Below are positions 44,077-59,886 of a DNA stretch of 64,000 nt, in pieces (within the stretch, counting starts at the first letter, position 1; every line of letters starts with the position of its first letter). Below the pieces are notes generated by a model, which saw only the letters and a program-made list of their open reading frames with translations, made no database searches and was not told the origin of the DNA. A program made the position numbers and the translations under genes. The DNA comes from an uncultured Spirochaetota bacterium (GTDB taxonomy: Bacteria; Spirochaetota; Brevinematia; Brevinematales; JAOACQ01). The DNA lies in contig CAVYGN010000001.1 of the NCBI GenBank assembly GCA_963768055.1, positions 1,152,001-1,216,000 of the forward strand, in the 5' to 3' direction.

Positions 44077-44574
44077 ATGAAATATTCGATGATTTCAATT
44101 TTAATTGCATTTTCCGCATTCACTTTTGTTTTTTCCGAAGACGCCCCTACAAACGGCGGCAAGGCACCAATGATCAAGGGTGAAGACTTGGGTACGGACG
44201 CCGGGGATATTTCGCTCAAGCTTTATGCCGGGAAAGTAGTCCTTATTAATTTCTGGGCCACCTGGTGCCCGCCCTGCCGTGGTGAGATCCCCGACCTGAT
44301 AAAACTGCAGAAAGTTTATAAGGGGAAATTGGAGGTATTCAGTGTTTCTGTCGATCAGAACGGCCCTGATAAGGTCAGGGAATTTTCTAAAAAATACGGG
44401 ATCAATTATCCGGTCATAATGTCCGATGACGGCATAGTCCGTAGCTACGGCGGGATAGAGGCTATCCCCACGACTTTCTTAGTCGACACCAACGGCAATC
44501 TTGTAAAGAAATATGTAGGCTCTATGACTTTTGACCAGTACGAGGCTGAAATCAAGCCTTTCCTGCCGGAATGA
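44077..44574 (+). CDS. TlpA-family thiol-disulfide oxidoreductase
   Basis: Signal peptide; NFWATWCPPCRGE and IPTTFLVD motifs. Confidence 0.93.
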   Translation: MKYSMISILIAFSAFTFVFSEDAPTNGGKAPMIKGEDLGTDAGDISLKLYAGKVVLINFWATWCPPCRGEIPDLIKLQKVYKGKLEVFSVSVDQNGPDKVREFSKKYGINYPVIMSDDGIVRSYGGIEAIPTTFLVDTNGNLVKKYVGSMTFDQYEAEIKPFLPE

Positions 44575-44612
44575 ACAGGTTGACTGACATAATTTATTGT
44601 AAGGAGGTTATT

Positions 44613-45809
44613 ATGGTCGCAAAACAATTGAAAATGTGGCTGATTATTATCCTGATCTCGATTCCCGCCTTAACTTTTGGAAGTTCTCTGTATGACGCCG
44701 CCGACGACGGCAACGTCGCATTCATAAAAAATTACAGCGGCGATATCAATGCTAAAGATTCGGATGGTAAGACTGCATTGATGTTTGCATCCGAAAACGG
44801 CCAGTCTGTGGCTGCCGCAGCGCTGATGGAAGCCGGAGCCGATGTTAACGAAAAGGATAACGCCGGCATGACAACTTTAATGTATGCGTCTGAAAACGGC
44901 CAGCCTGATATTGTCAAATCACTAATTAAAGCTAAGGCGGAGATAAATGCGAAGGATAAAAATGCAAAAACGGCTTTAATGTATGCTGCTGAAAACGGCC
45001 AGTCTGTGGCTGCCGCTGCGCTGATCAAGGCGGGATCAGATGTCAATGCCAGGGATAATGACGGCAATACGGTTTTGATCTGGTCTGCCACTCGTAATGA
45101 CCCGGAAGCAGTTAAAGTTATAAAATCGTTGATAGAAGCGAAAGCCGATGTTAACGGCAGGGATAATGACGGCAGTACAGCATTAATGCAAGCGGGCAAA
45201 TCGGGGATTGCCGGAAACATCAAAGCATTGATAGAGGCCAATGCGGATATAAACGCCACCAATGAAGACGGAACGACTGCTTTGATGTATGCCATAAAGG
45301 CAGGAGCTGATTCAAATGTGATTAAATTATTAATCGATTCCGGGGCGGATGTCAACACTGTGGATAAAGACGGCAATACCGCTTTAATACGTGCGACCGA
45401 TTCATATACCTCAATGGTATCAGCAGCTTTTGGCGTTAATTCAGATGCGGCAGTAGTAATCAAACTTTTGGTTGAAGCGAAAGCGGATGTCAACATTATG
45501 GATAAAGACGGCAATACTGCTTTAATGTATGTAGCAAAGTGGGGATTAGCGGACGCAGTTAAAGTTTTGATCGAAGCGAAGGCAGATTTAAATGCCAGGA
45601 ATGATGAAGGAAAGACGGCCCTGATATTTGCAGCAAAATTTCCAATTTTGAATATGAAACCGAAAATCAAGTTAATTAGAGAGTTGATAGAAGCCGGAGC
45701 AGACATCAATATCAAGGATATGTACGGTTATACAGCTTTGACATATGCGGCCAGAAGGAATGCAACATCGGAAACGGTTGAAGTTTTAAAAGAAGCCGGT
45801 GCGAAATAG
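44613..45809 (+). CDS. Secreted ankyrin-repeat protein
   Basis: SD AAGGAGG, signal peptide, about 10 repeats of type GxTALMxA..LIEAxADVN. Confidence 0.93.
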   Translation: MVAKQLKMWLIIILISIPALTFGSSLYDAADDGNVAFIKNYSGDINAKDSDGKTALMFASENGQSVAAAALMEAGADVNEKDNAGMTTLMYASENGQPDIVKSLIKAKAEINAKDKNAKTALMYAAENGQSVAAAALIKAGSDVNARDNDGNTVLIWSATRNDPEAVKVIKSLIEAKADVNGRDNDGSTALMQAGKSGIAGNIKALIEANADINATNEDGTTALMYAIKAGADSNVIKLLIDSGADVNTVDKDGNTALIRATDSYTSMVSAAFGVNSDAAVVIKLLVEAKADVNIMDKDGNTALMYVAKWGLADAVKVLIEAKADLNARNDEGKTALIFAAKFPILNMKPKIKLIRELIEAGADINIKDMYGYTALTYAARRNATSETVEVLKEAGAK

Positions 45810-45812
45810 GCA

Positions 45813-46907
45813 TCAATTTTCGAGATATCCGAATACGGGCTCGCCGGCTTTGGGATGCCAGACCCTGTCCAGCTTTTCTTTAACGCGCCTTATGGCCCCT
45901 TCTTCGCTGGAGACATAGAGGGTTTTTCCGCTCTCGGCGGCGACAAGGGGCCTTAACTTTACCCTGTCCGAGAGGGCCATAAATCCGCCGTCGAAACCGA
46001 TAATGAACGCGAAGGGACCGTTCAAAAGCAGGCTTCCGTAAACAGTCCTGAGCCCGGTATAAAGCGATTTCGATTCCTCGTCCATAGCATCTATGTCTTT
46101 CCAGAACGGGGCGGCGAAAACCTTGGCGATCATATCCCATGACAGGTTATGTTTCCTTTTTAACAGGTCGACGCCGTAAGCGACAACTTCGGTATCGGTG
46201 CGCATTGTGCATTCGTAGCCGAAACTCTCAAGGTATCTCCGGTTGATGCCGTATGAAGAAATCTCTCCGTTATGGACTACCGAATAATTGAGAATTGTAA
46301 ATGGATGAGCGCCTCCCCACCAGCCGGGTGTATTCGTGGGAAATCTGCTGTGAGCGATCCATGTATGGGCCTCGTATTCATCAAGCCTGAAAAAATCGCC
46401 CAGCTCATGGGCCTCCCCGACCCCCTTGAATGCGCCCATGTTCTTGCCGCTTGACATGATGAAAACGCCTTCGATATTTTTATTGATGAATAAAACCTTT
46501 GAAACTACGTAGTCGTCTTCTTTTTCATTTCCCAGACGGGCGTCGGAAACCCGGCAGAAATACCTGTAAAAGAGGGGCGACCGGCCGATCGTCTTGTTTT
46601 TTCTCGTGGGTATCTGGTCTTCATAAACTATATCGAAATTCTCTTTTATATACTCCTTCCCCCTATCCATGGATGCGGTATCGTCATACATAACATGCAG
46701 GGCATAATAATCCTTATATGTATCGTAAAGGCCGTAAACGGCAAAACCGCCCCCAAGGCCGTTTCCCCTTTCTTTCATATGCTCTATGCCTTTTATGGCG
46801 TCGATGCCTTTGGATTTCCTGCCGTCCCTGTTTATAAAGCCGATAAGGCCGCAGCCGGATATATCCTTTTCACCATAAGGGCTTGAGAGCCCGTAATTAT
46901 GCGTCAT
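45813..46907 (-). CDS. Class II glutamine amidotransferase (stand-alone glutamate synthase GAT subunit / GlxB-like)
   Basis: CGLIG (Cys19), ERGNGLGGGF, HSRFPTNT, AHPF, VHNGEI, TDTEV and NGPF motifs. Confidence 0.88.
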   Translation of the reverse strand: MTHNYGLSSPYGEKDISGCGLIGFINRDGRKSKGIDAIKGIEHMKERGNGLGGGFAVYGLYDTYKDYYALHVMYDDTASMDRGKEYIKENFDIVYEDQIPTRKNKTIGRSPLFYRYFCRVSDARLGNEKEDDYVVSKVLFINKNIEGVFIMSSGKNMGAFKGVGEAHELGDFFRLDEYEAHTWIAHSRFPTNTPGWWGGAHPFTILNYSVVHNGEISSYGINRRYLESFGYECTMRTDTEVVAYGVDLLKRKHNLSWDMIAKVFAAPFWKDIDAMDEESKSLYTGLRTVYGSLLLNGPFAFIIGFDGGFMALSDRVKLRPLVAAESGKTLYVSSEEGAIRRVKEKLDRVWHPKAGEPVFGYLEN

Positions 46908-49969: not shown

Positions 49970-52900
49970 ATGGTAAATCATGACGACGTTATAAGAGAAC
50001 TAACGGGATCAAGCGAGTATTTAAGGGCGCTGATATCGAAAAATAACGATATTTATTATGAGTTGGAATCGGCTATCGCTGATTGGAACGATAAAAAGGT
50101 TTTTAAAAGAACCGCATATTATGAAAAATACCAATTTAAGGCATCTTTAAAGGATAATGAAGGCATACTTCTCCAATCAAGATTAATTAAAAACAGGGAA
50201 CTGGCTTTGATAGCTTTAAGGGATTTCTTACATATAAATTCAGTAAGCGATACTCTTACGGATCTTTCAAAACTCGCGGATTTCTGCATCGATTATTCAA
50301 TAAAAAGCCTGCTCAGTTTTTCAGACATTAAAAAAAGCGTTACTTATGAAGTTTTAAAAAGAAATCTTATAATTATCGGAATGGGCAAGCTCGGGGGCAA
50401 CGAACTCAATATAAGTTCAGACATAGATCTTATCTTTCTCGGGAAAGACTCAAGTCTGTCCGATGACGGTATGAGGCATGATATTGAAAACTTCCTTTCA
50501 AGGCTTCTTGATTTTATTTACGCAACTTCCAGCGAAGGATTTTTATATCGAGTCGATATGAGACTCAGGCCGGAGGGCGAAAACGGACCCTTGATCATGG
50601 GAATTCAAAACGCAATCGAATATTACAAAAGCAGGGCCAGGAAGTGGGAACTCCAGGCTATGATAAAAAAAAGACTTGTCTGGGGAAGCGAGGAACTCTA
50701 TCAGGATTTTGCAATCCCCCTTGACAATATTGTGTACCGGCACCATCAGCCCCAGAGTATCATTTACGATATTAAAAAGATCAAGAACGAAATCGAACTA
50801 AATATCCGGCGCAAAAAACTTGCGTTTGAAATAAAACAATCTCCCGGCGGCATAAGGGATATTGAATTTATTATCCAATTTCTCCAGCTTATTCATGGAA
50901 TCCGTTATCCCGAGATAAGGAACTCGAATTCAATATCGGCATTGGCCTCGCTAAATACTTTCCATATAATAACCCCTGACGAATTTACTACTCTGAATAT
51001 CAGTTATATCATCCTGAGGAAGATTGAAAATATACTTCAGCTGAAAAACAATACCCCCGAACATGCCTTGCCGGAAAAAGACAGCGATATCGAGAAACTT
51101 TTCAGATACTGGAAGATCGGCGGATTTGAAAGCGGTTCGGGCAATTATGGCAGGGATTTTAAAAACAGGGTCGCAAAGATTATGACGGATGTGAGAAGTA
51201 TTTTCTCATCCCTGTTCGACGAAACGATCCGTTATCTTGAATTAAAGGACAACCTTATCAAGGAGCATCCGGATATAGATAAAACTCTTCTTGAGGATCA
51301 TTTTCTGAGAATGGACAGCGAATATTTTCTCCGTTTCCAGGAAAATGAAATCTATAATCATATAAAAATGATCTCAAAGCTCGATCTTCAAAATCCCGCC
51401 GAGTTGGAAGCTGAAGAGGCCGGCCAGGGCAAATGGAAAATTACAATTGTAGCTTTTGATTATTATTATGAATTTTCCAAAATCGCGGGCCTGGTCTCCG
51501 CTTATTATTTAAAGATAATCAGCGGAGAATCATTTACATACAGCGATTATACGCCTTCGATAAGCAGTGATCCGGATACTATTTACAGGAGAAAAAAAAA
51601 GAGGATCTATCCCTTTTCCTCTGCAAATAAATCCGAATTACTTATATATAGAAGAAAAATAGTATGTTTTTTATTTGTTGCGCCGCTGGAAGGGCATGTC
51701 CTGGAAGGGTATGCCCCGGAGGGACCTGATTGGGATGCCTTTAAAAAAGAATTTATCCATATACTTAATTTCCTGGAAACTAACAGAATAAGAGAATCGG
51801 AGGAATTTCTCAACAATAAGATCCTGGGACTTATTTCCGGAATTCAATCCGGGGAAACCCTGATGCTTTCACCGGTCGATATAGAGGTGGACAATGATTC
51901 AAGCAGCCAGTATACCATATTGAACATACGTTCGAGAGACAGTTTCGCTTTCCTTTACACTTTTACCAATGTACTTGCCCTCAATAATTATTATATTTTT
52001 AAAATCGAAATAGATACTGTCGATGACAGGGCCTTCGACAGGCTGTTCATTCTCACCAGGGACGGTAAAAAAATACTGGAATCTGAAAAAATTGAAAATC
52101 TTAAAATAGCCGTCGCGCTTATCAAGCAGTATTCAACCTTGCTTCAGAACGCTGTCAACCCGGATAAGGCGCTTCATTATTTCGACGAACTTCTTTCAAA
52201 GGTACTTGAAAGCGGAGGTAAAACGGAATTGCCTATTCTCGGTCAGAATGACGTTCAGAAAAAACTTGCAACCGTTTTCGGGATCGGGGATTATTTTTGG
52301 GAGGATCTTATAAGATTTCAATACACAGATATGCTCCCTATATTGAACGATCCCTCGCTTGAATTACGATTTTCAAGAAGCCTTTTAACGGCCAATTTTA
52401 CAAATAATTATCTTAAAAAAAAACCTGAAGCAGAAGGCCTTGGTGAATTCGGAAAACATTTGAGTGAATGGAAAGATATGGAAATGTTCAGGATCGATCT
52501 CAGGCAGATCCTGAAAAAAATCGATATGATCCAATTTTCACTTGAACTGACTGAATTGGCTGAAGCTGTAATAGAAATAGCCCTTCAAAGGATAAATAAA
52601 GAAATTTTCGGGGTCCATGTTAAAAATATACCTCCCCTGGCCGTATTCGGCCTCGGAAAACTCGGAGGAAGGGAACTCGGATATGCTTCCGATATAGAAA
52701 TTATGTTTATTTATGATGATACCGATATCGGCGGCGACCTGGCCGATATCGATTCGTATTTTGAAAAATTCATTCAAACTTTTCTCAGCGTCATCCGTTC
52801 AAAGAGGGAGGGAATTTTTGAAATCGACCTCAACCTGAGGCCATATGGGAAGTCTTCCAAATTGTCGGTGTCAAAATCGAGCTTCTTTGAATATTTCACC

Positions 52901-53509
52901 GACGGCAAGGCTTATTATTTTGAAAAACAGGCGCTTGTTAAATTAAGGCCTGTTTCGAACGAAAAATCCTCCTTAAAATTAATACAGGAAATAACAGCCC
53001 ACCGCGATAAATTCGTTTACAGCGGGGAAAAGCCTGACATAACAGCGCTCCTGAATTTGAGGGAAAAGCAGATCCGCACATACATTAAGGATCCCGTTCT
53101 TACAAATATAAAATATTCTAAGGGGTGTCTCGTAGATATAGAATATCTGGTCCAGACCCTTCAGATTGCATATGGAAAGACTTTTTTATCCCTGAGACTC
53201 GAATCCACGCTCGAGGCTGCGGAGGCCCTCTTCAATACTGGTATAATTAGCGAACAGGTCCGGAACGGATTAACTGAAAGCTATCTTTTTTTCAGGAATC
53301 TGATAAATATTCTCCGAATGGTTAAGGGAAACGCCAAAGATCTGAATGTATACCCGGAATCTTCAATGGAATTCGATTACCTTGTCAGGAGGAGTTATTT
53401 TATCGGCATTATCGAACAGAAATCACCCTCGCTTTTAAAAAACATGATTGAAAAATACAGACAGCAAGTCTTAAATATTTTTAACGATGAAATCGGCAAG
53501 TTAAAATGA
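49970..53509 (+). CDS. glnE: Glutamine synthetase adenylyltransferase/deadenylase with internal ACT domains
   Basis: Two nucleotidyltransferase domains (GMGKLGGNELNISSDID..RVDMRLRP and GLGKLGGRELGYASDIE..EIDLNLRP) around a central GlnD-like ACT pair. Confidence 0.9.
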   Translation: MVNHDDVIRELTGSSEYLRALISKNNDIYYELESAIADWNDKKVFKRTAYYEKYQFKASLKDNEGILLQSRLIKNRELALIALRDFLHINSVSDTLTDLSKLADFCIDYSIKSLLSFSDIKKSVTYEVLKRNLIIIGMGKLGGNELNISSDIDLIFLGKDSSLSDDGMRHDIENFLSRLLDFIYATSSEGFLYRVDMRLRPEGENGPLIMGIQNAIEYYKSRARKWELQAMIKKRLVWGSEELYQDFAIPLDNIVYRHHQPQSIIYDIKKIKNEIELNIRRKKLAFEIKQSPGGIRDIEFIIQFLQLIHGIRYPEIRNSNSISALASLNTFHIITPDEFTTLNISYIILRKIENILQLKNNTPEHALPEKDSDIEKLFRYWKIGGFESGSGNYGRDFKNRVAKIMTDVRSIFSSLFDETIRYLELKDNLIKEHPDIDKTLLEDHFLRMDSEYFLRFQENEIYNHIKMISKLDLQNPAELEAEEAGQGKWKITIVAFDYYYEFSKIAGLVSAYYLKIISGESFTYSDYTPSISSDPDTIYRRKKKRIYPFSSANKSELLIYRRKIVCFLFVAPLEGHVLEGYAPEGPDWDAFKKEFIHILNFLETNRIRESEEFLNNKILGLISGIQSGETLMLSPVDIEVDNDSSSQYTILNIRSRDSFAFLYTFTNVLALNNYYIFKIEIDTVDDRAFDRLFILTRDGKKILESEKIENLKIAVALIKQYSTLLQNAVNPDKALHYFDELLSKVLESGGKTELPILGQNDVQKKLATVFGIGDYFWEDLIRFQYTDMLPILNDPSLELRFSRSLLTANFTNNYLKKKPEAEGLGEFGKHLSEWKDMEMFRIDLRQILKKIDMIQFSLELTELAEAVIEIALQRINKEIFGVHVKNIPPLAVFGLGKLGGRELGYASDIEIMFIYDDTDIGGDLADIDSYFEKFIQTFLSVIRSKREGIFEIDLNLRPYGKSSKLSVSKSSFFEYFTDGKAYYFEKQALVKLRPVSNEKSSLKLIQEITAHRDKFVYSGEKPDITALLNLREKQIRTYIKDPVLTNIKYSKGCLVDIEYLVQTLQIAYGKTFLSLRLESTLEAAEALFNTGIISEQVRNGLTESYLFFRNLINILRMVKGNAKDLNVYPESSMEFDYLVRRSYFIGIIEQKSPSLLKNMIEKYRQQVLNIFNDEIGKLK

Positions 53510-54397
53510 AATATTCCCGTTTATTTTTTTTATTTTCTTATCGTCGTACATAAGTGAATCCGCTGCCTTCAAAGCGTCTTTAAGGGCCTCCCTGCTAAAA
53601 TCATAAAGCTTGGAAATCCCGAAGGAAAGAGAAAGGCAGTATGGATTTCCTCTTTTATTATACTCGCTGACTTGCTCCCTTATCCGGGATATAACAGCGG
53701 TTTCAAGATTTTCGGACTTACCGGTTATTACAAGTACCGCAAACTCATCTCCTCCCATACGGGCAATAACATCCCATTCCCTGAAAACATTTTTTAAAAA
53801 TAACGCTGTGTCTTTAATAACAGCATCGCCGGTGTCATGACCGAAAGCATCGTTAATCAGCTTGAGATTGTCTATATCGATATAAACTATATGAGTAAAT
53901 AAATTATTCCTTGCGGCAAACTGGTATTGCTTGGCCGCCAATGCATAAAACCCTCTTCGGTTTGATAGTCCTGTAAGTTCGTCAGTTCTGGAGAGCCGGG
54001 AAACCGAGTTGAATAATCTGAAGCGTTCAACCGCATATTTGATCGATTTATTAATATTTTCAGCATTGATCTCGGACTTTACTAAATAATCCTGAGCTCC
54101 GAACCGTATAGAGGTAAGAGCCATCCTCTCATCCCTCAAGCCGGTCAGCACAATAATCGGCACATCGCTTGACAATAATTTTATATTATTGACTGTTTTA
54201 TTTCCCTGGCTGTCGGGCAGTTCTAGATCCAGAATAATCAGCCCTATGTCTTCGTTCAGGACTATTTTCTTCCCCTGCGCCAGGGTTTCCGCTTTAATTA
54301 TCCTGCTGTCTGTGTCCTTTAAGTACTCCTCCAGCAGCCTTGCATCCCCGGGGTTGTCCTCTATGACCAGGATATTGCCGTATTCTGTCGATATCAT
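53501..54397 (-). CDS. Response regulator diguanylate cyclase (REC-GGDEF)
   Basis: ILVIEDN, LDLELPD, DELTGLSNRR, REWD I-site and GGDEF motifs. Confidence 0.95.
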   Translation of the reverse strand: MISTEYGNILVIEDNPGDARLLEEYLKDTDSRIIKAETLAQGKKIVLNEDIGLIILDLELPDSQGNKTVNNIKLLSSDVPIIVLTGLRDERMALTSIRFGAQDYLVKSEINAENINKSIKYAVERFRLFNSVSRLSRTDELTGLSNRRGFYALAAKQYQFAARNNLFTHIVYIDIDNLKLINDAFGHDTGDAVIKDTALFLKNVFREWDVIARMGGDEFAVLVITGKSENLETAVISRIREQVSEYNKRGNPYCLSLSFGISKLYDFSREALKDALKAADSLMYDDKKIKKINGNISF

Positions 54398-55944
54398 CCT
54401 GAACTCCCGGACCCATTTTGGGCCTCCAGTTCAGCGGGAATAGTAAAATAAAAAGTCGATCCTTTTTGCACTTCCGATTCAACCCAGATATTACCCCCAT
54501 GTCTTTCAACTATTTTCTTGCAGATTGAGAGGCCTATGCCGGTTCCCCCGTATTCGGACCTGGGATGAAGGCGCTGGAAGATCACAAATATCTTTTCGAA
54601 GTAAGCCGGATCTATTCCAATACCGTTGTCCTTAACTGAGAACAGCCATTTCCTGCCGCATTTCGATGCTGAAACAGCGATGCATGGTTTTTCACTCCCC
54701 TTGAACTTTATAGAATTTGACACAAGGTTTTCAAAAAGTTGTATAAGCTGCGCCCTGTCATATAAGATCTTCGGGAGACGGCTATGGGTAATTTCTACCC
54801 CGCTCTCCTTAATAGCCACAGCCAGATCTATTTTTATCTCTTCAATGATCTCGTTGCAGTCGATAATTGCAGGAGGATTACCCATAGTAGATATTCTCGA
54901 GTAATCGAGCAAATCGTTAATAAAGTTCTGCATTCTTGTGGCGCCGTCGACGGCAAAATTGATGAATTCGTCCGCATTTTTGTCAAGTTTACCCTTGTAC
55001 CGGTCAGAAAGGAGTTTTGTATAGCTTGCAACCATCCTCAGGGGTTCCTGGAGGTCATGGGAGGCCACATAGGCGAATTGTTCAAGGTCATGATTGGAAC
55101 GCCTCAACTCTTCCTGGGTTTTTTTCAAATCGGAAATTTCATGCAGAACGGAAATTATTTTCATGGGTTCGCCATGTTCATCATAAACGACCCTCGAATT
55201 GATAAGCACAGGATACTTCTTGCCATTTTTATCCATTATCTCTATTTCGAAATTTCTAAAACACCCATCGTTCAAGCATTGAGAAAGGCTTTTAACCATC
55301 CTGACATGTTCCTCTTCATCTATCATTTGAAGCGGCATGCTGCCTATAACTTCCTGTTCATTATAGCCTGTTAATTCAAGGAACGCCCTGTTCACCTGTA
55401 TTATCCTCCCCTGCAGGTCTGTTACTTCAATGGGATCCATCATGCCTTCGATAATTTCGGATGCCGTTTTAAGCGACTTGGCGGTTAATAAGGCCGTTTC
55501 CCTTTCAGCCTGTTCCTTTTTAAGCTCCGTTATGTCGTTAAATACAACCAGGAGGTTCTGGGCGCCATTGATATTGAAAGAGATGAACCGGTTGTTAAGC
55601 CATATATCCTTTCCGGTTTCTGTTGTAATATGGATTTCTCTTTCAGCCTCCTCCCCGGTATTAAGGGTATAATCTTTAGCCTCAATAAACCCTGAATTCT
55701 TCCGGTTTTCAAGAAAGCCGGGAAAACCCTTGCCGATTTTCATCAGGGTCCGATTTGCCGCCACAAGGTTCCCGTTATTATCGTACAATGCTATGCCTAC
55801 CGGAAGAATATCTATTATTTTCTTGTCAAATTCCAGGATATCCTGCCGGGGTTGCAGCGATGAATTATTCTTCAACACTTCAATTTCTCTTTCAAGTTCC
55901 ACGATCTTTTGCTTTAATCTGAAAACATCTTCCTTTTCTTTCAT
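54394..55944 (-). CDS. Cytoplasmic PAS-PAS histidine kinase
   Basis: Two PAS domains; FAYVASHDLQEPLR, DNGIGI and GTGIGL motifs; coupled to the DGC gene. Confidence 0.93.
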   Translation of the reverse strand: MKEKEDVFRLKQKIVELEREIEVLKNNSSLQPRQDILEFDKKIIDILPVGIALYDNNGNLVAANRTLMKIGKGFPGFLENRKNSGFIEAKDYTLNTGEEAEREIHITTETGKDIWLNNRFISFNINGAQNLLVVFNDITELKKEQAERETALLTAKSLKTASEIIEGMMDPIEVTDLQGRIIQVNRAFLELTGYNEQEVIGSMPLQMIDEEEHVRMVKSLSQCLNDGCFRNFEIEIMDKNGKKYPVLINSRVVYDEHGEPMKIISVLHEISDLKKTQEELRRSNHDLEQFAYVASHDLQEPLRMVASYTKLLSDRYKGKLDKNADEFINFAVDGATRMQNFINDLLDYSRISTMGNPPAIIDCNEIIEEIKIDLAVAIKESGVEITHSRLPKILYDRAQLIQLFENLVSNSIKFKGSEKPCIAVSASKCGRKWLFSVKDNGIGIDPAYFEKIFVIFQRLHPRSEYGGTGIGLSICKKIVERHGGNIWVESEVQKGSTFYFTIPAELEAQNGSGSSG

Positions 55945-56128: not shown

Positions 56129-57547
56129 TTAAATATCGTAGTAGAGGAAAAACTCGTAGGGATGCGGCCTCTGCTGAATAGCCCTGACTTCGTTAACCAT
56201 TTTATATTCTATCCAGGTATCGATCACGTCTTTTGTGAATACATCGCCCTTCAGGAGAAACTCATGGTCGTTTTGAAGGTTGTTTAAAGCCTCTTCGAGC
56301 GAACCTGGAATGTTGCCGACTTTAGACTGTTCTTCCGGAGGAAGATCGTAGATATTTTTATCCATCGGCTCGCCTGGGTCAATCTTATTCTGGATTCCGT
56401 CGAGTCCGGCCAGGAGCATAGCGGAAAACGCAAGGTAAGGGTTACAGCTCGGATCGGGTGTCCTGAATTCAAGCCGTTTTGACGCAGGGTTTGTAGAATA
56501 CATTGGAATTCTTACGGCAGCGCTTCTATTCCTTGCCGAATATGCCAGTTTGATTGGTGCTTCGAAGCCGGGAACAAGCCTCTTATAAGAATTCATAGTA
56601 GGACAGGTAATGGCGACAAGGGAATTAGCGTGCTTTAAAATTCCGCCGATATACCAGAGTCCTTCCTGCGAAAATCCGGCATATTTATTACCAGCAAAGA
56701 GGTTTTTACCGCCCTTCCAGATACTCTGATGGCAATGCATACCGCTTCCATTATCGCCGAAGAGAGGCTTGGGCATGAATGTAACGGTCTTGCAGTTGTT
56801 GACGGCTACGCTCTTCGTAACGTATTTATAAAATAGAACCTGGTCGGCCATTTTCACGAGATCGGTATACCTCATATCTATTTCAGCCTGTCCGGCTGTT
56901 GCGACTTCATGATGGTGCGCTTCGATGCGGATTCCGACTTTTTCAAGCATCTGCACCATTTCACTTCGGATGTCCATAAGAGAATCGGAGGGAGGAACCG
57001 GGAAATATCCTTCTTTATGCCTGATCTTATAACCCTTGTTCCCGCATTCTTCTACCCTGCCTGTATTCCATACGCCTTCATCGGAATCGATGTAATAATA
57101 GCCCTCTTTCGCATTCTGGCCGTATCTTATATCATCGAATATGAAGAATTCAAGCTCCGGGCCAATATAAATAGTGTCTCCTATTCCGGTGCTTTTTAAA
57201 TAATTGACCGCTTTTTTAGCGATATGCCTCGGATCTCTTGTGTATTCCTGGAGGGTGATGGGATCCTTGATATCCGCTATCATTATCAAAGTGGGATACT
57301 GTGAGAACGGATCGATTACAGCAGTAGTCGGGTCAGCCATTAAAAGCATATCGGATTCGTTAATCCCCTGCCAGCCTCGGATGGAAGAACCGTCAAATCC
57401 TAATCCTTCCTCAAAAGGACTTTCGTCCTTGAATTCTGAAACAGGATAAGTACAGTGCTGCCACATACCCGGAAAATCCATGAAACGCAAATCTACCTGA
57501 ACGATACCTTCTTTTTTTATCAGGTCCAATACTCCTTTAGCGTCCAT
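56129..57547 (-). CDS. glnA: Glutamine synthetase type I (beta type, adenylylatable)
   Basis: [38 protein letters not shown] and NRSA motifs; adenylylation site NIYDLP. Confidence 0.99.
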
Positions 57548-57590: not shown

Positions 57591-57606
57591 AGCAATTATT
57601 GTTCCA
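57591..57606 (-). promoter_or_regulatory. sigma54 (-24/-12) promoter of glnA
   Basis: TGGAACAATAATTGCT: GG-N10-GC, close match to TGGCAC-N5-TTGCW, 44 nt upstream of the ATG. Confidence 0.8.
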
Positions 57607-57810: not shown

Positions 57811-59886
57811 ATGGACAATAATTACACTAAGGAACTTGAGGAAAAGATAAAACGGTTAAAACTTATCCAATATCTCACAATAGCTATGAACGAGACTTCC
57901 GATTCCCAGGAACTTTTAAAAATAATGCTTGATAAATGCATAGCTATTACGGGCGCTGACAGCGGTTCAATTATGATAAAAGACCCCGGTTCCAGGCACC
58001 TGCGTTACGAGGCGTTTAAGGGGCTTGACGAGGATATGGTCTTCCGGACCCCGATCGAAGTGGGTGAAGGCCTCACAGGAACTGTGTTTCAGGATGGAAT
58101 TCCCAGGCTTGTCAGTGATGTAAGTATCGATCCGGTCTATATTTCTGTACGGAAGGATATACGGTCGGAACTGGCAGTCCCGCTCTCAGTACAGGGAAAA
58201 ATAATAGGTGTTGTTAATGTTGACAGCGCTAAGATAGGTGCTTTTACCGAGGGCGACATGGAATTTCTGCAGACAATATCCAACCAGGCCGCCCAGATAC
58301 TTGTCAGAACAAACCTGAACCATCAACTTGAAAGTAAAATAAAATTCAAGGATATTCTTCTGGATATATCCCAGAGTATTGAAAAGATCTTCGAATTGTC
58401 GGATTCATTTGAAATCGTGATGAAAAAACTGGCTGACAGCTTTGGAATTTACAGGGGAATGCTCGTTCTCTTCGAGAAGAACGAACCGAATAAGCTTTCG
58501 ATATATAACGCCTACAATATTACAGACGAAGAAATGTCCCGAGGTATTTACAAAGTAGGCGAAGGAGTCGTAGGCAAGGTCGTCGAAACCGGCAAGGCCC
58601 TTTCAATTAAAGATATCAATAAAGACGATTCATATCTCAACAGGCTTCAAATCAAGCGCGATAAAAATGTCCCGATCTCTTTTATAGCAGTTCCGATAAA
58701 AATCGAGGGGATAGTAGTAGGCGTTCTCGCTGTCGAAAAATACTTTGAAAATGAGAACACTTTAAACGACGAGGAAGACATGATGATCCTTGTGGCAAAT
58801 ATCATAGCAAATAAAGTCAAATCGTGGGAAAGAATATATAAAGACAAAGAGAATCTCATCGCTGAAAATACTATTCTAAAAAAAGAGCTTTTCAAGAATT
58901 TCGCAATCGACAATATTATCGGTAAAAACAAGCAAATGATAGCGGTTTTCGAACTTATTAAAACCGTGTCCGACAGCAATTCATCTATTTTGATCCTAGG
59001 TGAAAGCGGTACAGGTAAAGAACTTGTCGCCCAGGCCCTGCATGTCGGAAGCGGAAGAAAGGATTCCCCCTTTGTAAGCATCAACTGCGCATCGATCCCT
59101 GAAAATCTTCTCGAGTCCGAACTCTTCGGATATAAAAAAGGGGCTTTTACCGGTGCGATATCCGATAAAAAGGGGAAATTTCAATTGGCTAACGGGGGGA
59201 CAATATTCCTCGATGAAATCGGCGATATGCCCCTTTATCTTCAGGCAAAACTTTTAAGGGCTATACAGGAAAGGGAAATCGAACCCCTCGGCAGCGAGGC
59301 CAAAATAAAAATAGATATCAGGATCATTTCGGCAACCAACAAGGAGCTTGATAAATTGATAAAGGACGGAAAATTCAGGAAAGACCTTTATTACCGCCTC
59401 AATGTAATCGAAATCCAGATACCCCCTCTGAGGAGCAGAAAAGACGATATCCCGCTTCTTGTAAACCATTTTATCAAAAAGTATTCAACCCGGGACAACA
59501 AAAATGTGTATGGCATCTCGCAGGAATCTTTAAGGCTCCTCCAGTCTTATAACTGGCCGGGCAATATCAGGGAACTTGAAAATGTAATTGAAAGAGCGGT
59601 TCTCCTCTGCCGGTCTCAGACTATTGAGGTTGTGAACCTCCCGTCATTTCTCATGGATATAGAAGAAGTGCCTGATATTCATATAAGCAAATGGATAGAA
59701 GGCTTTGTTAAAAATCCGGCCTGCAACGGGAAACTTTATGAAAGGATTATAGGCCATATTGAAAAGGAGCTTATTTCAAGGTCTCTTATATTCAACAATC
59801 GAAACAAGGTCAAGACCTCGGACTTTCTCGGCATCAACAGGAATACCCTTAGAAGCAAGATGGAAGAGTATAATATCAAAATATAA
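57811..59886 (+). CDS. GAF-GAF sigma54-dependent enhancer-binding protein (NifA/FhlA-like)
   Basis: Two GAF domains; GESGTGKE, ESELFG, GAFTGA, FLDEIG and WPGNIREL motifs; Fis-type HTH (LGINRNTLR). Confidence 0.93.
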   Translation: MDNNYTKELEEKIKRLKLIQYLTIAMNETSDSQELLKIMLDKCIAITGADSGSIMIKDPGSRHLRYEAFKGLDEDMVFRTPIEVGEGLTGTVFQDGIPRLVSDVSIDPVYISVRKDIRSELAVPLSVQGKIIGVVNVDSAKIGAFTEGDMEFLQTISNQAAQILVRTNLNHQLESKIKFKDILLDISQSIEKIFELSDSFEIVMKKLADSFGIYRGMLVLFEKNEPNKLSIYNAYNITDEEMSRGIYKVGEGVVGKVVETGKALSIKDINKDDSYLNRLQIKRDKNVPISFIAVPIKIEGIVVGVLAVEKYFENENTLNDEEDMMILVANIIANKVKSWERIYKDKENLIAENTILKKELFKNFAIDNIIGKNKQMIAVFELIKTVSDSNSSILILGESGTGKELVAQALHVGSGRKDSPFVSINCASIPENLLESELFGYKKGAFTGAISDKKGKFQLANGGTIFLDEIGDMPLYLQAKLLRAIQEREIEPLGSEAKIKIDIRIISATNKELDKLIKDGKFRKDLYYRLNVIEIQIPPLRSRKDDIPLLVNHFIKKYSTRDNKNVYGISQESLRLLQSYNWPGNIRELENVIERAVLLCRSQTIEVVNLPSFLMDIEEVPDIHISKWIEGFVKNPACNGKLYERIIGHIEKELISRSLIFNNRNKVKTSDFLGINRNTLRSKMEEYNIKI

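Follow-up and report, generated by a model that had tools for sequence, protein, structure and literature searches.

An internal ACT-domain pair homologous to the GlnD C terminus in a GlnE-family protein from an uncultured Spirochaetota bacterium

In the stretch of DNA analysed here (the window; 64,000 nucleotides), we identified a glnE-family gene whose product carries a GlnD-type pair of ACT domains between its two nucleotidyltransferase halves. The gene (49970..53509, + strand) starts with ATG, contains no internal stop codon and encodes a protein of 1179 residues (P0001), the only GlnE of the genome. We consider it rather likely that P0001 is a functional GlnE that modifies glutamine synthetase (GS) and uses its ACT pair as a metabolite sensor, in parallel with the GlnD-GlnK system of the same organism.

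In Pfam searches, P0001 scored 269.3 bits against GlnE (PF03710; cut-off 24) over two stretches, residues 8-247 and about 764-1000, and 109.8 bits against GlnD_UR_UTase (PF08335), again over two stretches, residues 272-416 and about 1045-1124. This is the layout of the GlnE family, in which a GlnD_UR_UTase helical domain comes after each of the tandem GlnE nucleotidyltransferase domains. The boundaries leave an inter-half region of about 340 residues (425-763; nucleotides 51242-52258). An initial annotation of this DNA had placed the inserted module at 51299-52080, which lies inside the region, although the region proved somewhat wider. As the scores against the NCBIfam models fell below the curated cut-offs (397.8 bits, cut-off 487, for the E. 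coli-type equivalog NF008292/PRK11072; 350.2 bits, cut-off 724, for PRK14108; 350.5 bits, cut-off 625, for PRK14109), P0001 is not filed as an E. coli-type equivalog. Judged by these profile matches, it is a member of the GlnE family without that status. The Pfam scan gave no match to the HD domain (PF01966), a GlnD-type nucleotidyltransferase was likewise absent, and the score of 65.4 bits against the GlnD model TIGR01693 (cut-off 519.4) stems from the ACT region.

E. coli GlnE (946 aa; structures 1v4a for the N-terminal adenylyl-removing (AR) part and 3k7d for the adenylyltransferase (AT) part) is also built of two homologous halves with a GlnE and a GlnD_UR_UTase domain each. Its catalytic motif is nearly identical to that in half 1 of P0001, and the type I GS of this genome has its Tyr site in common with the E. 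coli enzyme. By our account, no AT half other than that of E. coli has been characterised biochemically. Both proteins have a segment between the halves, which in E. coli GlnE is described as regulatory in PMC12409994. The E. coli segment comprises about 116 residues (437-552) and has no ACT pair, whereas that of P0001 is about 340 residues long and includes one. A further difference is that half 2 of P0001 has a D-x-E motif and falls in a separate clade, while E. coli GlnE has D-x-D.

Concerning the inter-half region, all the motifs pointed out in the initial annotation were found in the translation, namely HFLRMDSEYF..EIYNHI in a GlnD-like linker, and ITIVAFD..FSKIAGLV..SFTY and VDNDSSSQYTILNIRSRD..FLY..DRAFDRLFILTRDGKKI in the two ACT-like units. 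The region divides, all on the + strand, into the GlnD-like helical linker (residues 425-470; 51242..51379; predicted helices within module residues 2-45, pLDDT 93-96), ACT1 (about 477-572; 51398..51685; predicted strands at module residues 53-61, 64-72, 90-99 and 139-148, helix at 77-87), a pair of inter-ACT helices (588-622; 51731..51835; module residues 164-179 and 183-198), ACT2 (about 636-725, VDNDSS..TILNIRSRDSFAFLY..; 51875..52144; strands at 212-217, 225-232, 250-260 and 263-272, helices at 237-247 and 281-301) and C-terminal helices (726-763; 52145..52258; module residues 307-345) with a lower pLDDT of 57-82. When searched alone, the module matched the GlnD models PRK05092 (E 8.6e-15; module residues 211-291, corresponding to ACT2, aligned to 839-919 of 940), TIGR01693 (E 1.1e-12) and PRK05007 (E 1.8e-6; module residues 11-101, the linker and ACT1, aligned to 648-738 of 884). 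A profile of 20 module sequences was then compared with three GlnD sequences using hhalign. The whole GlnD tail aligned with the module in the same order over 227 columns (probability 99.2%, E 1.4e-19; module columns 8-272 against residues 642-872 of 887). The same profile gave a probability of 0.4% against E. coli GlnE, in agreement with the earlier statement that the E. coli protein has no ACT module. On these alignments, the module and the C-terminal part of GlnD are homologous and share the succession linker, ACT1, ACT2, as had been proposed.

At the level of single sequences the resemblance is more distant. The module is about 18-27% identical to GlnD and matches the GlnD of its own genome weakly (BLASTP E 0.022), the two having the motifs AFD...FS..G and D.P..L in common. 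The HMM scan suggested along with the initial annotation recovered GlnE above its cut-off as well as GlnD_UR_UTase, but ACT_ACR9_3rd, in the ACT2 region, reached 23.3-26.5 bits and stayed under its curated cut-off of 27. No Pfam family was matched by module residues 1-153 at E values up to 10. Two homologues exceeded the cut-off for the Pfam ACT clan, P0020 with 37.3 bits for ACT_ACR9_3rd and 27.1 for PF01842, and P0031 with 33.6 bits. In P0001 the ACT pair lies inside the protein and is joined to a GlnE half, whereas it is C-terminal in GlnD, and ACT1 of P0001 differs from GlnD in a variable basic insertion (about 530-546) that is poorly ordered in the AF2 model (pLDDT below 50 at module residues 106-122). 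In ACT2, residues D641, N642, F661 and L662 were invariant among 44 proteins with the order AR-module-AT; they lie in the beta1-alpha1 region, which we take to be the usual ligand site of ACT domains.

Structure prediction had been named beforehand as a test of the ACT assignment, and the AF2 model of the module (pLDDT 84.3, pTM 0.83) displayed the ACT fold. The best structural match was the ACT pair of an aspartate kinase (3l76_B; Z 9.8, rmsd 3.8 over 158 residues), a Z score modestly over the background of 7-8 stated by the comparison tool. Other matches were the regulatory domain of threonine dehydratase (9d2s_A, Z 7.5) and CASTOR1/2 (Z 5.5-6.3, with 6.3 for CASTOR2), and ACT1 matched the ACT-like domains of maize R and GL3 (Z 6.0 and 5.9, rmsd 2.2-2.3 over 78-79 residues). 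The top match in Foldseek was a large glutamate dehydrogenase bearing ACT domains (GDH; 7jsr, E 7e-5). The module is thus confidently predicted to be a tandem pair of beta-alpha-beta-beta-alpha-beta ACT folds.

The catalytic halves were then examined. The GlnE signature is given in PMC12409994 as a glycine-rich loop and metal-binding carboxylates, G-X11-D-X-D. Each half of P0001 possesses a glycine-rich loop and two carboxylates. In half 1 (residues 1-424; 49970..51241, + strand) the motif GKLGGNELNISSDIDL (50384..50431, + strand) has a strict D-x-D (D151, D153), and residues G139, K140, G142, E145, N147, S150, D151 and D153 were invariant in the 44 AR-module-AT proteins. Half 2 (residues 764-1179; 52259..53506, + strand) has the motif GKLGGRELGYASDIEI (residues 896-911; 52655..52702, + strand), in which the second carboxylate is Glu (D908, E910), so that the strict D-x-D is not present there; G896, K897, G899, G904, S907, D908 and E910 were invariant in the same 44 proteins. 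The SDIE noticed in the initial annotation was thereby confirmed. With D-x-E and not D-x-D in all 45 of the post-module halves checked, SDIE is, across these sequences, a signature of the whole post-module clade and no local oddity.

Half 1 scored 178 bits against 1v4a and 105 bits against 3k7d, aligned to positions 34-439 of 946 in PRK11072 and clustered in the tree with canonical N-terminal halves (support 99/97). These results indicate that it is likely the adenylyl-removing half. Half 2 scored 109.9 bits for GlnE and 38.4 bits for GlnD_UR_UTase in Pfam, and it belongs to a clade of 45 post-module halves (support 100/100) that clusters with eight of the nine canonical C-terminal halves (support 99/97). 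A tree constrained to unite this clade with all ten canonical C-terminal halves was not rejected (p-AU 0.745) and was better by 21.75 lnL units than the free quick tree. The motif ELGY.SD of half 2 also occurs in the AT half of E. coli GlnE; the corresponding motif of AR-type halves is ELN[YF]SSD. Scores against the two structures did not discriminate AR from AT (82.7 bits for 1v4a, 79.2 for 3k7d), in the careful tree the E. coli AT half came out on the AR side with a branch length of 1.3, and the part of the NCBIfam GlnE models to which half 2 alone aligned was the AR part (87-438 of 946). Because none of these three supports the assignment, it rests on position, the canonical C-terminal halves of spirochaetes and one short motif, by which half 2 is likely the adenylyltransferase half.

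The presumed substrate is encoded 2.6 kb from the glnE homologue. A glnA gene (56129..57547, - strand) encodes a type I GS (TIGR00653, 676 bits; cut-off 429) that shares 57% identity with GlnA of E. coli. When the region around Tyr400 (codon at 56348-56350, - strand) was aligned to the E. coli sequence MDKNLYDLPPEE, NIYDLPPEE corresponded to NLYDLPPEE, and the target Tyr is kept, as the initial annotation had read it. The glnA gene adjoins the glnE homologue in three of five related loci (L009, L010 and L011).

Long GlnE proteins of this kind are present in other phyla too, as the initial annotation had expected. At least 150 clusters at 50% identity matched the module with E values of 7e-18 or better, and module-bearing forms were found in Spirochaetota, Nitrospira, Anaerolineae, Kiritimatiellae and Abditibacteriales. 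Among 170 module-bearing proteins, the order of P0001, with an AR-type half upstream in the same polypeptide, was the commonest (57 proteins); the others were module-AT (47), module alone (33), module-AT-AR (23), AR-module (8) and module-AT-AT (2). Where a half followed the module it was always of the half 2 type (129 proteins) and never of the half 1 type, the remaining 41 proteins either ending after the module or having no detectable half there. In the relatives, half 2 begins within a few residues of the module end. The module is therefore strictly coupled to the D-x-E half, which is retained, together with the same module, in the permuted module-AT-AR proteins (about 1240-1290 aa) and in the split module-AT form (about 730-780 aa, e.g. 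in Nitrospira). We found no publication on the ACT-bearing GlnE design in a literature search. The proteins appear to constitute a sizeable, uncharacterised GlnE subfamily, of which P0001 is one further member and not a unique invention.

As to how P0001 might function, we propose that it reversibly adenylylates the neighbouring type I GS on Tyr400, with half 1 removing the adenylyl group and half 2 most likely attaching it. The module, fused directly before half 2, would act as an allosteric sensor in which the ACT pair binds a small metabolite reflecting nitrogen status, most likely glutamine. Ligand binding would then shift the balance between adenylylation and deadenylylation through the fused half, and the protein would work alongside the intact GlnD-GlnK system without replacing it. 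Ligand sensing by the module is inferred by analogy with two precedents described in PMC11190351: GlnD needs its ACT domains for its glutamine response, and alpha-amylase 2 (AMA2) of Chlamydomonas is activated by glutamine through a GlnD/ACR-like ACT domain that is required for activation. Taking into account that direct glutamine control is reported for E. coli GlnE (PMC2736657), a protein devoid of ACT domains, direct glutamine sensing is in itself no new property. For the same reason, glutamine sensing as such can do without the ACT module, which may sense something else.

The initial annotation had gone further and suggested that the GlnD-PII-GlnE cascade may have collapsed into one protein, P0001 being a self-sufficient glutamine sensor and effector that replaces the input from GlnD and PII. 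A search of the genome did not bear this out for the present organism. The same assembly contains an amtB-glnK-glnD operon, a further amtB-glnK pair and a fusion of a permease with PII; GlnD (P0004, 873 aa) is encoded by a separate gene and has nucleotidyltransferase, GlnD_UR_UTase, HD and ACT matches, and Tyr51 is kept in both GlnK proteins. P0001 thus sits beside the classical GlnD-PII pathway in this genome and not in place of it. The distribution of genes in the phylum is less one-sided. Among 201 genomes of the phylum, 20 carry the module, and GlnD was found in four of these 20 as against nine of the 17 genomes in which no module was detected in GlnE, a difference to be read with the caution that the genomes are interrelated and several are incomplete, so that the absence of a gene is weak evidence. 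Neither GlnD nor PII was found in five of the 20, including G032 (98% complete) and G119 (95%). These counts, and the link of the corresponding GlnD part to the glutamine response (PMC11190351), speak for a collapsed cascade. On the other hand, GlnD is present in the congeners G132 and G181, and a search for PII was positive in 15 of the 20 genomes with the module, in some of which it lies near glnE (G150, G030 and G094). We regard replacement of the GlnD-PII input as unlikely.

The presence of PII genes here and in those 15 genomes also fits a different role, in which the ACT pair would be a docking or scaffold domain, for instance for GlnK/PII or the GS dodecamer, and would take the part of the central region of E. 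coli GlnE. The module occupies the position of that regulatory region, PII is reported to bind GS-ATase (PMC12409994), and some ACT-like domains make protein-protein contacts, the ACT-like domains of plant bHLH proteins being among the structural matches. This reading is however at odds with the five genomes in which PII was not found, with the module's specific homology to the tail of GlnD, a region linked to the glutamine response, and with the conserved residues in the beta1-alpha1 region of ACT2, and we judge it improbable. Also to be considered is whether the D-x-E half lacks catalytic activity or has diverged towards a substrate different from GS, in which case P0001 would be no classical two-way modifier of GS. 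The distinctness of the post-module clade, its D-x-E in place of D-x-D and the score under the equivalog cut-off would be in line with this. Nevertheless, the invariance of both carboxylates and the glycine-rich loop in 44 homologues argues for a live active site, and the synteny with glnA, the target Tyr retained in GS and the status of P0001 as sole GlnE in the genome make this reading very improbable. A sensor-equipped GS modifier acting in parallel with GlnD-GlnK is the reading that we prefer.

The GlnD-PII-GlnE-GS cascade is the textbook bicyclic system of covalent modification, and to our knowledge detailed work on it has been confined almost entirely to proteobacteria and actinobacteria. 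With a GlnD sensor pair wired onto one catalytic half, the design points to a shorter path from metabolite to GS, which may be independent of PII. We tentatively raise a bolder possibility, which we hold to be rather doubtful as it stands, that the ACT pair and the D-x-E half form an autonomous glutamine-gated GS adenylyltransferase, which would be the sole post-translational nitrogen sensor where GlnD (16 of the 20 genomes) or both GlnD and PII (5 of the 20) were not found, and would provide one of two parallel inputs in the present genome. If true, a single protein would replace the bicyclic cascade in those lineages. The naturally split (module-AT) and permuted forms would allow sensing and catalysis to be assigned to separate pieces. 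AMA2 and the plant ACR proteins resemble P0001 in combining an ACT domain of the GlnD/ACR-like type, by fusion or partnership, with an enzyme of carbon/nitrogen metabolism; AMA2 differs in having an unrelated catalytic partner, a different lineage and one N-terminal ACT domain.

The glnE-family gene spans 49970..53509 on the forward strand as an uninterrupted reading frame of 1179 residues. Pfam places a GlnE domain at residues 8-247 and a GlnD_UR_UTase domain at 272-416 in half 1 (residues 1-424), and the same pair at approximately 764-1000 and 1045-1124 in half 2 (residues 764-1179), making the protein a member of the GlnE family by Pfam criteria. Scored against the E. coli-type GlnE equivalog model, it reached 397.8 bits against a cut-off of 487 and is thus not an equivalog. 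Nor is it a GlnD, because it lacks an HD domain. The halves are separated by an insert of about 340 residues (residues 425-763, nt 51242-52258, forward strand), whereas in E. coli GlnE (locus L014 in our set) the domain pairs are only about 116 residues apart with no further domain detected. All motifs quoted for this protein in the initial annotation were found in the translation, including the second catalytic motif GKLGGRELGYASDIEI.

Concerning the insert, we searched it alone against NCBIfam. Its first 100 residues matched PRK05007 (positions 648-738 of 884, E 1.8e-6), which covers ACT1 and the stretch immediately preceding it, and residues 211-291 matched ACT2 (PRK05092, 839-919 of 940, E 8.6e-15; TIGR01693, E 1.1e-12). 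The matches to GlnD models run in the same order as in GlnD. We then built two alignments, one from 20 insert sequences and one from three GlnD proteins (this genome's own among them), and compared them. The two profiles aligned over 227 columns (GlnD positions 642-872 of 887) with an hhalign probability of 99.2% and an E value of 1.4e-19. The corresponding probability for E. coli GlnE was 0.4%, indicating that no such module is present there. The Pfam ACT-type match in the protein itself lies just under the cut-off (23.3-26.5 bits vs 27), and homologs pass it. That the module had recently been shuffled in from the GlnD of this genome was considered and rejected, with BLASTP giving an E value of 0.022 and approximately 27% identity over the linker and ACT1.

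The tandem ACT fold that had been proposed for this central region was borne out by structure prediction. An AlphaFold2 model of the insert, built on the 20-sequence alignment, had a mean pLDDT of 84.3 and a pTM of 0.83, and the sole poorly ordered stretch, at module residues 106-122, was a basic insertion within ACT1. From N- to C-terminus, the model runs through a linker of four helices, a beta-alpha-beta-beta unit, a helix pair, another beta-alpha-beta-beta unit and a tail of helices. In an exhaustive structural search the top match was the regulatory tandem ACT pair of the aspartate kinase from Synechocystis (3l76_B; rmsd 3.8 over 158 residues), with a Z score of 9.8 that is only moderately over the stated background of 7-8. 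The regulatory domain of threonine dehydratase followed (Z 7.5), and further matches were an ACT-bearing large glutamate dehydrogenase (Z 6.9), CASTOR2 (6.3) and CASTOR1 (5.5). Single plant ACT-like domains gave Z scores of about 6 with an rmsd of 2.2 over 78 of 79 residues. Foldseek against the PDB returned just two matches with E <= 0.001, both to large glutamate dehydrogenases. To our knowledge, no structure of the GlnD tail has been solved. As sequence and predicted fold agree, the insert is assigned as a GlnD-type linker followed by ACT1 and ACT2.

We examined how widely the module occurs and in which domain context. A search of 1.84 billion cluster representatives with the insert retrieved 670 proteins at E <= 0.001, 279 at 1e-10 and 43 at 1e-30, and GlnE domains were present in all 31 insert matches scanned with Pfam. 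We classified 170 proteins (the window's own, 150 listed insert matches and 19 more) by similarity to half 1, the module (M) and half 2 of the window's protein, taking half 1-type (H1-type) regions as adenylyl-removing (AR) and half 2-type (H2-type) regions as adenylyltransferase (AT). The arrangement AR-M-AT accounted for 57 proteins, M-AT for 47, M-AT-AR for 23, AR-M for 8 and M-AT-AT for 2, and the remaining 33 contained the module only and were short, probably fragments. Directly after the module, an H2-type half was found in 129/170 proteins and an H1-type half in 0/170; in 34 the protein stops within 60 residues of the module, and in 7 at least 60 residues are left with no half detected. 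H1-type halves vary in placement, lying upstream, downstream or being missing from the polypeptide. Since H2-type halves, and never H1-type halves, follow the module, the conserved evolutionary unit is, by this classification, the module together with an H2-type half.

The initial annotation had also supposed that similar long GlnE proteins occur in other phyla. In agreement with this, module proteins carry source names from Spirochaetes, Kiritimatiellae, Nitrospirae/Nitrospira, Anaerolineae and Abditibacteriales. In Nitrospira it takes the form of a 759-aa M-AT protein, which is present too on a 4.69-Mb contig. The closest relatives of the window's protein come from Brevinematales and other Spirochaetota MAGs, with 53-74% identity in the module, and a search with the single protein as query recovered only five close relatives.

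As for the two halves, half 1 scored 178 bits against the E. coli AR structure (1v4a) and 105 bits against the AT structure (3k7d), and its motif GKLGGNELNISSDIDL is almost identical to the E. coli AR motif; on these similarities it is clearly AR-type. Half 2 is less clear-cut: it scored 82.7 bits against 1v4a and 79.2 bits against 3k7d, and, when aligned alone to the NCBIfam GlnE models, it falls on their AR positions. Pairwise and profile scores did not yield a simple orthologous relationship between half 2 and the AT half of E. coli, and the trees were mixed. The glycine-rich loop and both carboxylates are invariant in 44 full-length homologs. The catalytic motifs divide the halves sharply. 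The motif ELN[YFIV]SSD.D is found in 32 of 32 halves that do not follow a module and in 9 of 11 canonical N-terminal halves, and D-x-D in 9 of 10 canonical C-terminal halves. All 45 post-module halves carry G[YFWM][AG]SD.E (D-x-E), and ELGY.SD is common to the E. coli AT half and the post-module type. The SDIE of the second catalytic motif had been pointed out earlier; with D-x-E in every post-module half, it marks the clade as a whole and is not a local degeneration.

In a careful tree of 96 halves (LG+G4), the post-module halves formed a clade at 100/100. A 99/97 split placed this clade with eight spirochaete canonical C-terminal halves, and on the opposite side lay all AR-type halves together with the E. 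coli C-terminal half (branch length 1.3). When one long-branch row was removed from a quick tree, all nine canonical C-terminal halves, including that of E. coli, grouped with the post-module clade, with an SH-aLRT of only 67. A tree constrained to unite the post-module halves with all 10 canonical C-terminal halves, a grouping named as a hypothesis before tree building and tested after the first tree had been seen, lay 21.75 log-likelihood units above the free quick tree and was not rejected (p-AU 0.745). Half 2 is probably the adenylyltransferase half, an assignment that the sole characterized AT half does not settle.

Within the phylum, GlnE was present in 37 of 201 sampled genomes. It was module-bearing (profile E <= 1e-28; ORFs mostly 1179-1317 aa) in 20, with GlnD found in four of them (this genome, G132, G181 and G077) and PII in 15; the other 17, two of them with contig-end fragments only, have a GlnE without a detected module, and GlnD was found in nine, all of these tallies being raw counts over related genomes, some incomplete. 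One genome (G019) gave an HD-region match only and was left out of the GlnD count. PII was not found in five of the 20 module-bearing genomes, G032, G119, G068, G088 and G097, which are 98, 95, 83, 75 and 84% complete, respectively. Two genomes (G021 and G047) encode GlnE proteins of about 1000 residues without the module (L019 and L025), whose N-terminal half has no recognizable nucleotidyltransferase motif. Their C-terminal half scores nearer the AR-type half 1 (120-126 bits, against 87-94 for half 2) and branches in the tree with other canonical C-terminal halves. Two genomes of about 1.8 Mb (G086 and G103; same class, family f6) encode GlnE proteins of 900-937 residues (L023 and L024) with one GlnE domain by Pfam; GlnD was not found in either, and PII is present.

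The genome studied here (3.69 Mb, 2 contigs, 94.75% complete) contains a single GlnE, that of the window. A search for glnD and glnK identified an amtB-glnK-glnD operon (L005, G000:C2:1509436-1514886) and a further amtB-glnK pair. Tyr51 is retained in the two GlnK proteins, within GREY. The 873-aa GlnD is divergent (363 bits on TIGR01693, cut-off 519), with all four domain types (NTP_transf_2, GlnD_UR_UTase, HD and ACT) present. The initial annotation had suggested that the GlnD-PII-GlnE cascade may be collapsed into one protein. As the classical cascade genes are kept, the cascade is not collapsed in this organism, and that reading does not hold for this genome. On contig G000:C1 (L003:13-1842, approximately 99275-101104), a 609-aa fusion joins an amino-acid permease (residues 21-486) to a C-terminal PII domain (497-603), with another short PII-like frame behind it (L004).

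What might the module do? According to PMC12409994, E. coli GlnE comprises an N-terminal half that deadenylylates and a C-terminal half that adenylylates, with a regulatory region between them, and its balance is set by PII and PII-UMP. Glutamine, too, directly controls the enzyme (PMC2736657). The glutamine response of GlnD is described as requiring its ACT domains, and a GlnD/ACR-like ACT domain as conferring glutamine activation on an unrelated enzyme (PMC11190351). We propose that the ACT pair, invariably attached at the N-terminal end of the D-x-E half, would act as an allosteric effector site, most likely for glutamine. The liganded pair would gate the D-x-E half and thereby set the AT/AR balance, and GlnK/GlnK-UMP could provide a second input in this genome. 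Because glutamine sensing in canonical GlnE involves no ACT domains, the main rival readings are that another ligand is bound by the module, or that it provides a docking surface.

We found no paper on a GlnE or glutamine synthetase adenylyltransferase with ACT domains in the literature searched, which leaves out most subscription journals, and among the matches listed for GlnD, ACT, glutamine and GlnE the architecture is absent from titles and the beginnings of abstracts. Some members are already public under the annotation 'ACT domain-containing protein', the NCBI name of some Anaerolineae proteins. This analysis adds a count over 170 proteins that couples the module strictly to the D-x-E half, the finding that D-x-E marks the whole clade, trees that are divided on AT identity, and tallies of GlnD/PII co-occurrence. 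The window's protein is a real, ordinary-looking member of a widespread, uncharacterized GlnE variant, one that we regard as moderately interesting and readily testable.

The presumed substrate, a type I glutamine synthetase, is encoded by glnA at 56129-57547 on the reverse strand (TIGR00653, 676 bits). Over its full length it can be aligned with the enzymes of Salmonella and E. coli (595 bits to 2gls and 57% identity with the E. coli protein), and the target Tyr aligns at residue 400, within the motif NIYDLPPEE, of which NIYDLP had been noted previously. Between glnE and glnA lie genes for a response-regulator-GGDEF protein and a PAS histidine kinase (53501-55944, reverse strand), for neither of which a match was found in L009-L011, related loci with a shorter distance between glnE and glnA. 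The order GATase2, glnE, glnA, sigma-54 activator is kept in these three of five related loci. The activator (57811-59886, forward strand) is a NifA-like protein of 691 residues (475 bits, cut-off 528.85) that combines a pair of GAF domains with a sigma-54 AAA+ domain and an HTH; it is syntenic with glnA in L009-L011 at 77-91% identity, and is probably the regulator of glnA. No sigma-54 promoter was seen 5' of glnE. The window's only one-mismatch match to the sigma-54 -24/-12 consensus, TGGAACAATAATTGC (57592-57606, reverse strand), precedes the glnA start by approximately 45 nt, next to the divergently transcribed activator gene; the consensus count over the window is at chance (28 vs 31.7 expected). 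On the other side of glnE, a stand-alone 364-aa class II glutamine amidotransferase domain protein (45813-46907, reverse strand) gave only weak matches to the N-terminal domains of GlmS, PurF and GltB, and lies immediately upstream of glnE in L009 and L010 with 87-90% identity. A 412-aa protein (44571-45809, forward strand) consists almost throughout of ankyrin repeats (Ank_2, 229 bits), and its gene overlaps the end of a thiol-redoxin gene by 4 nt.
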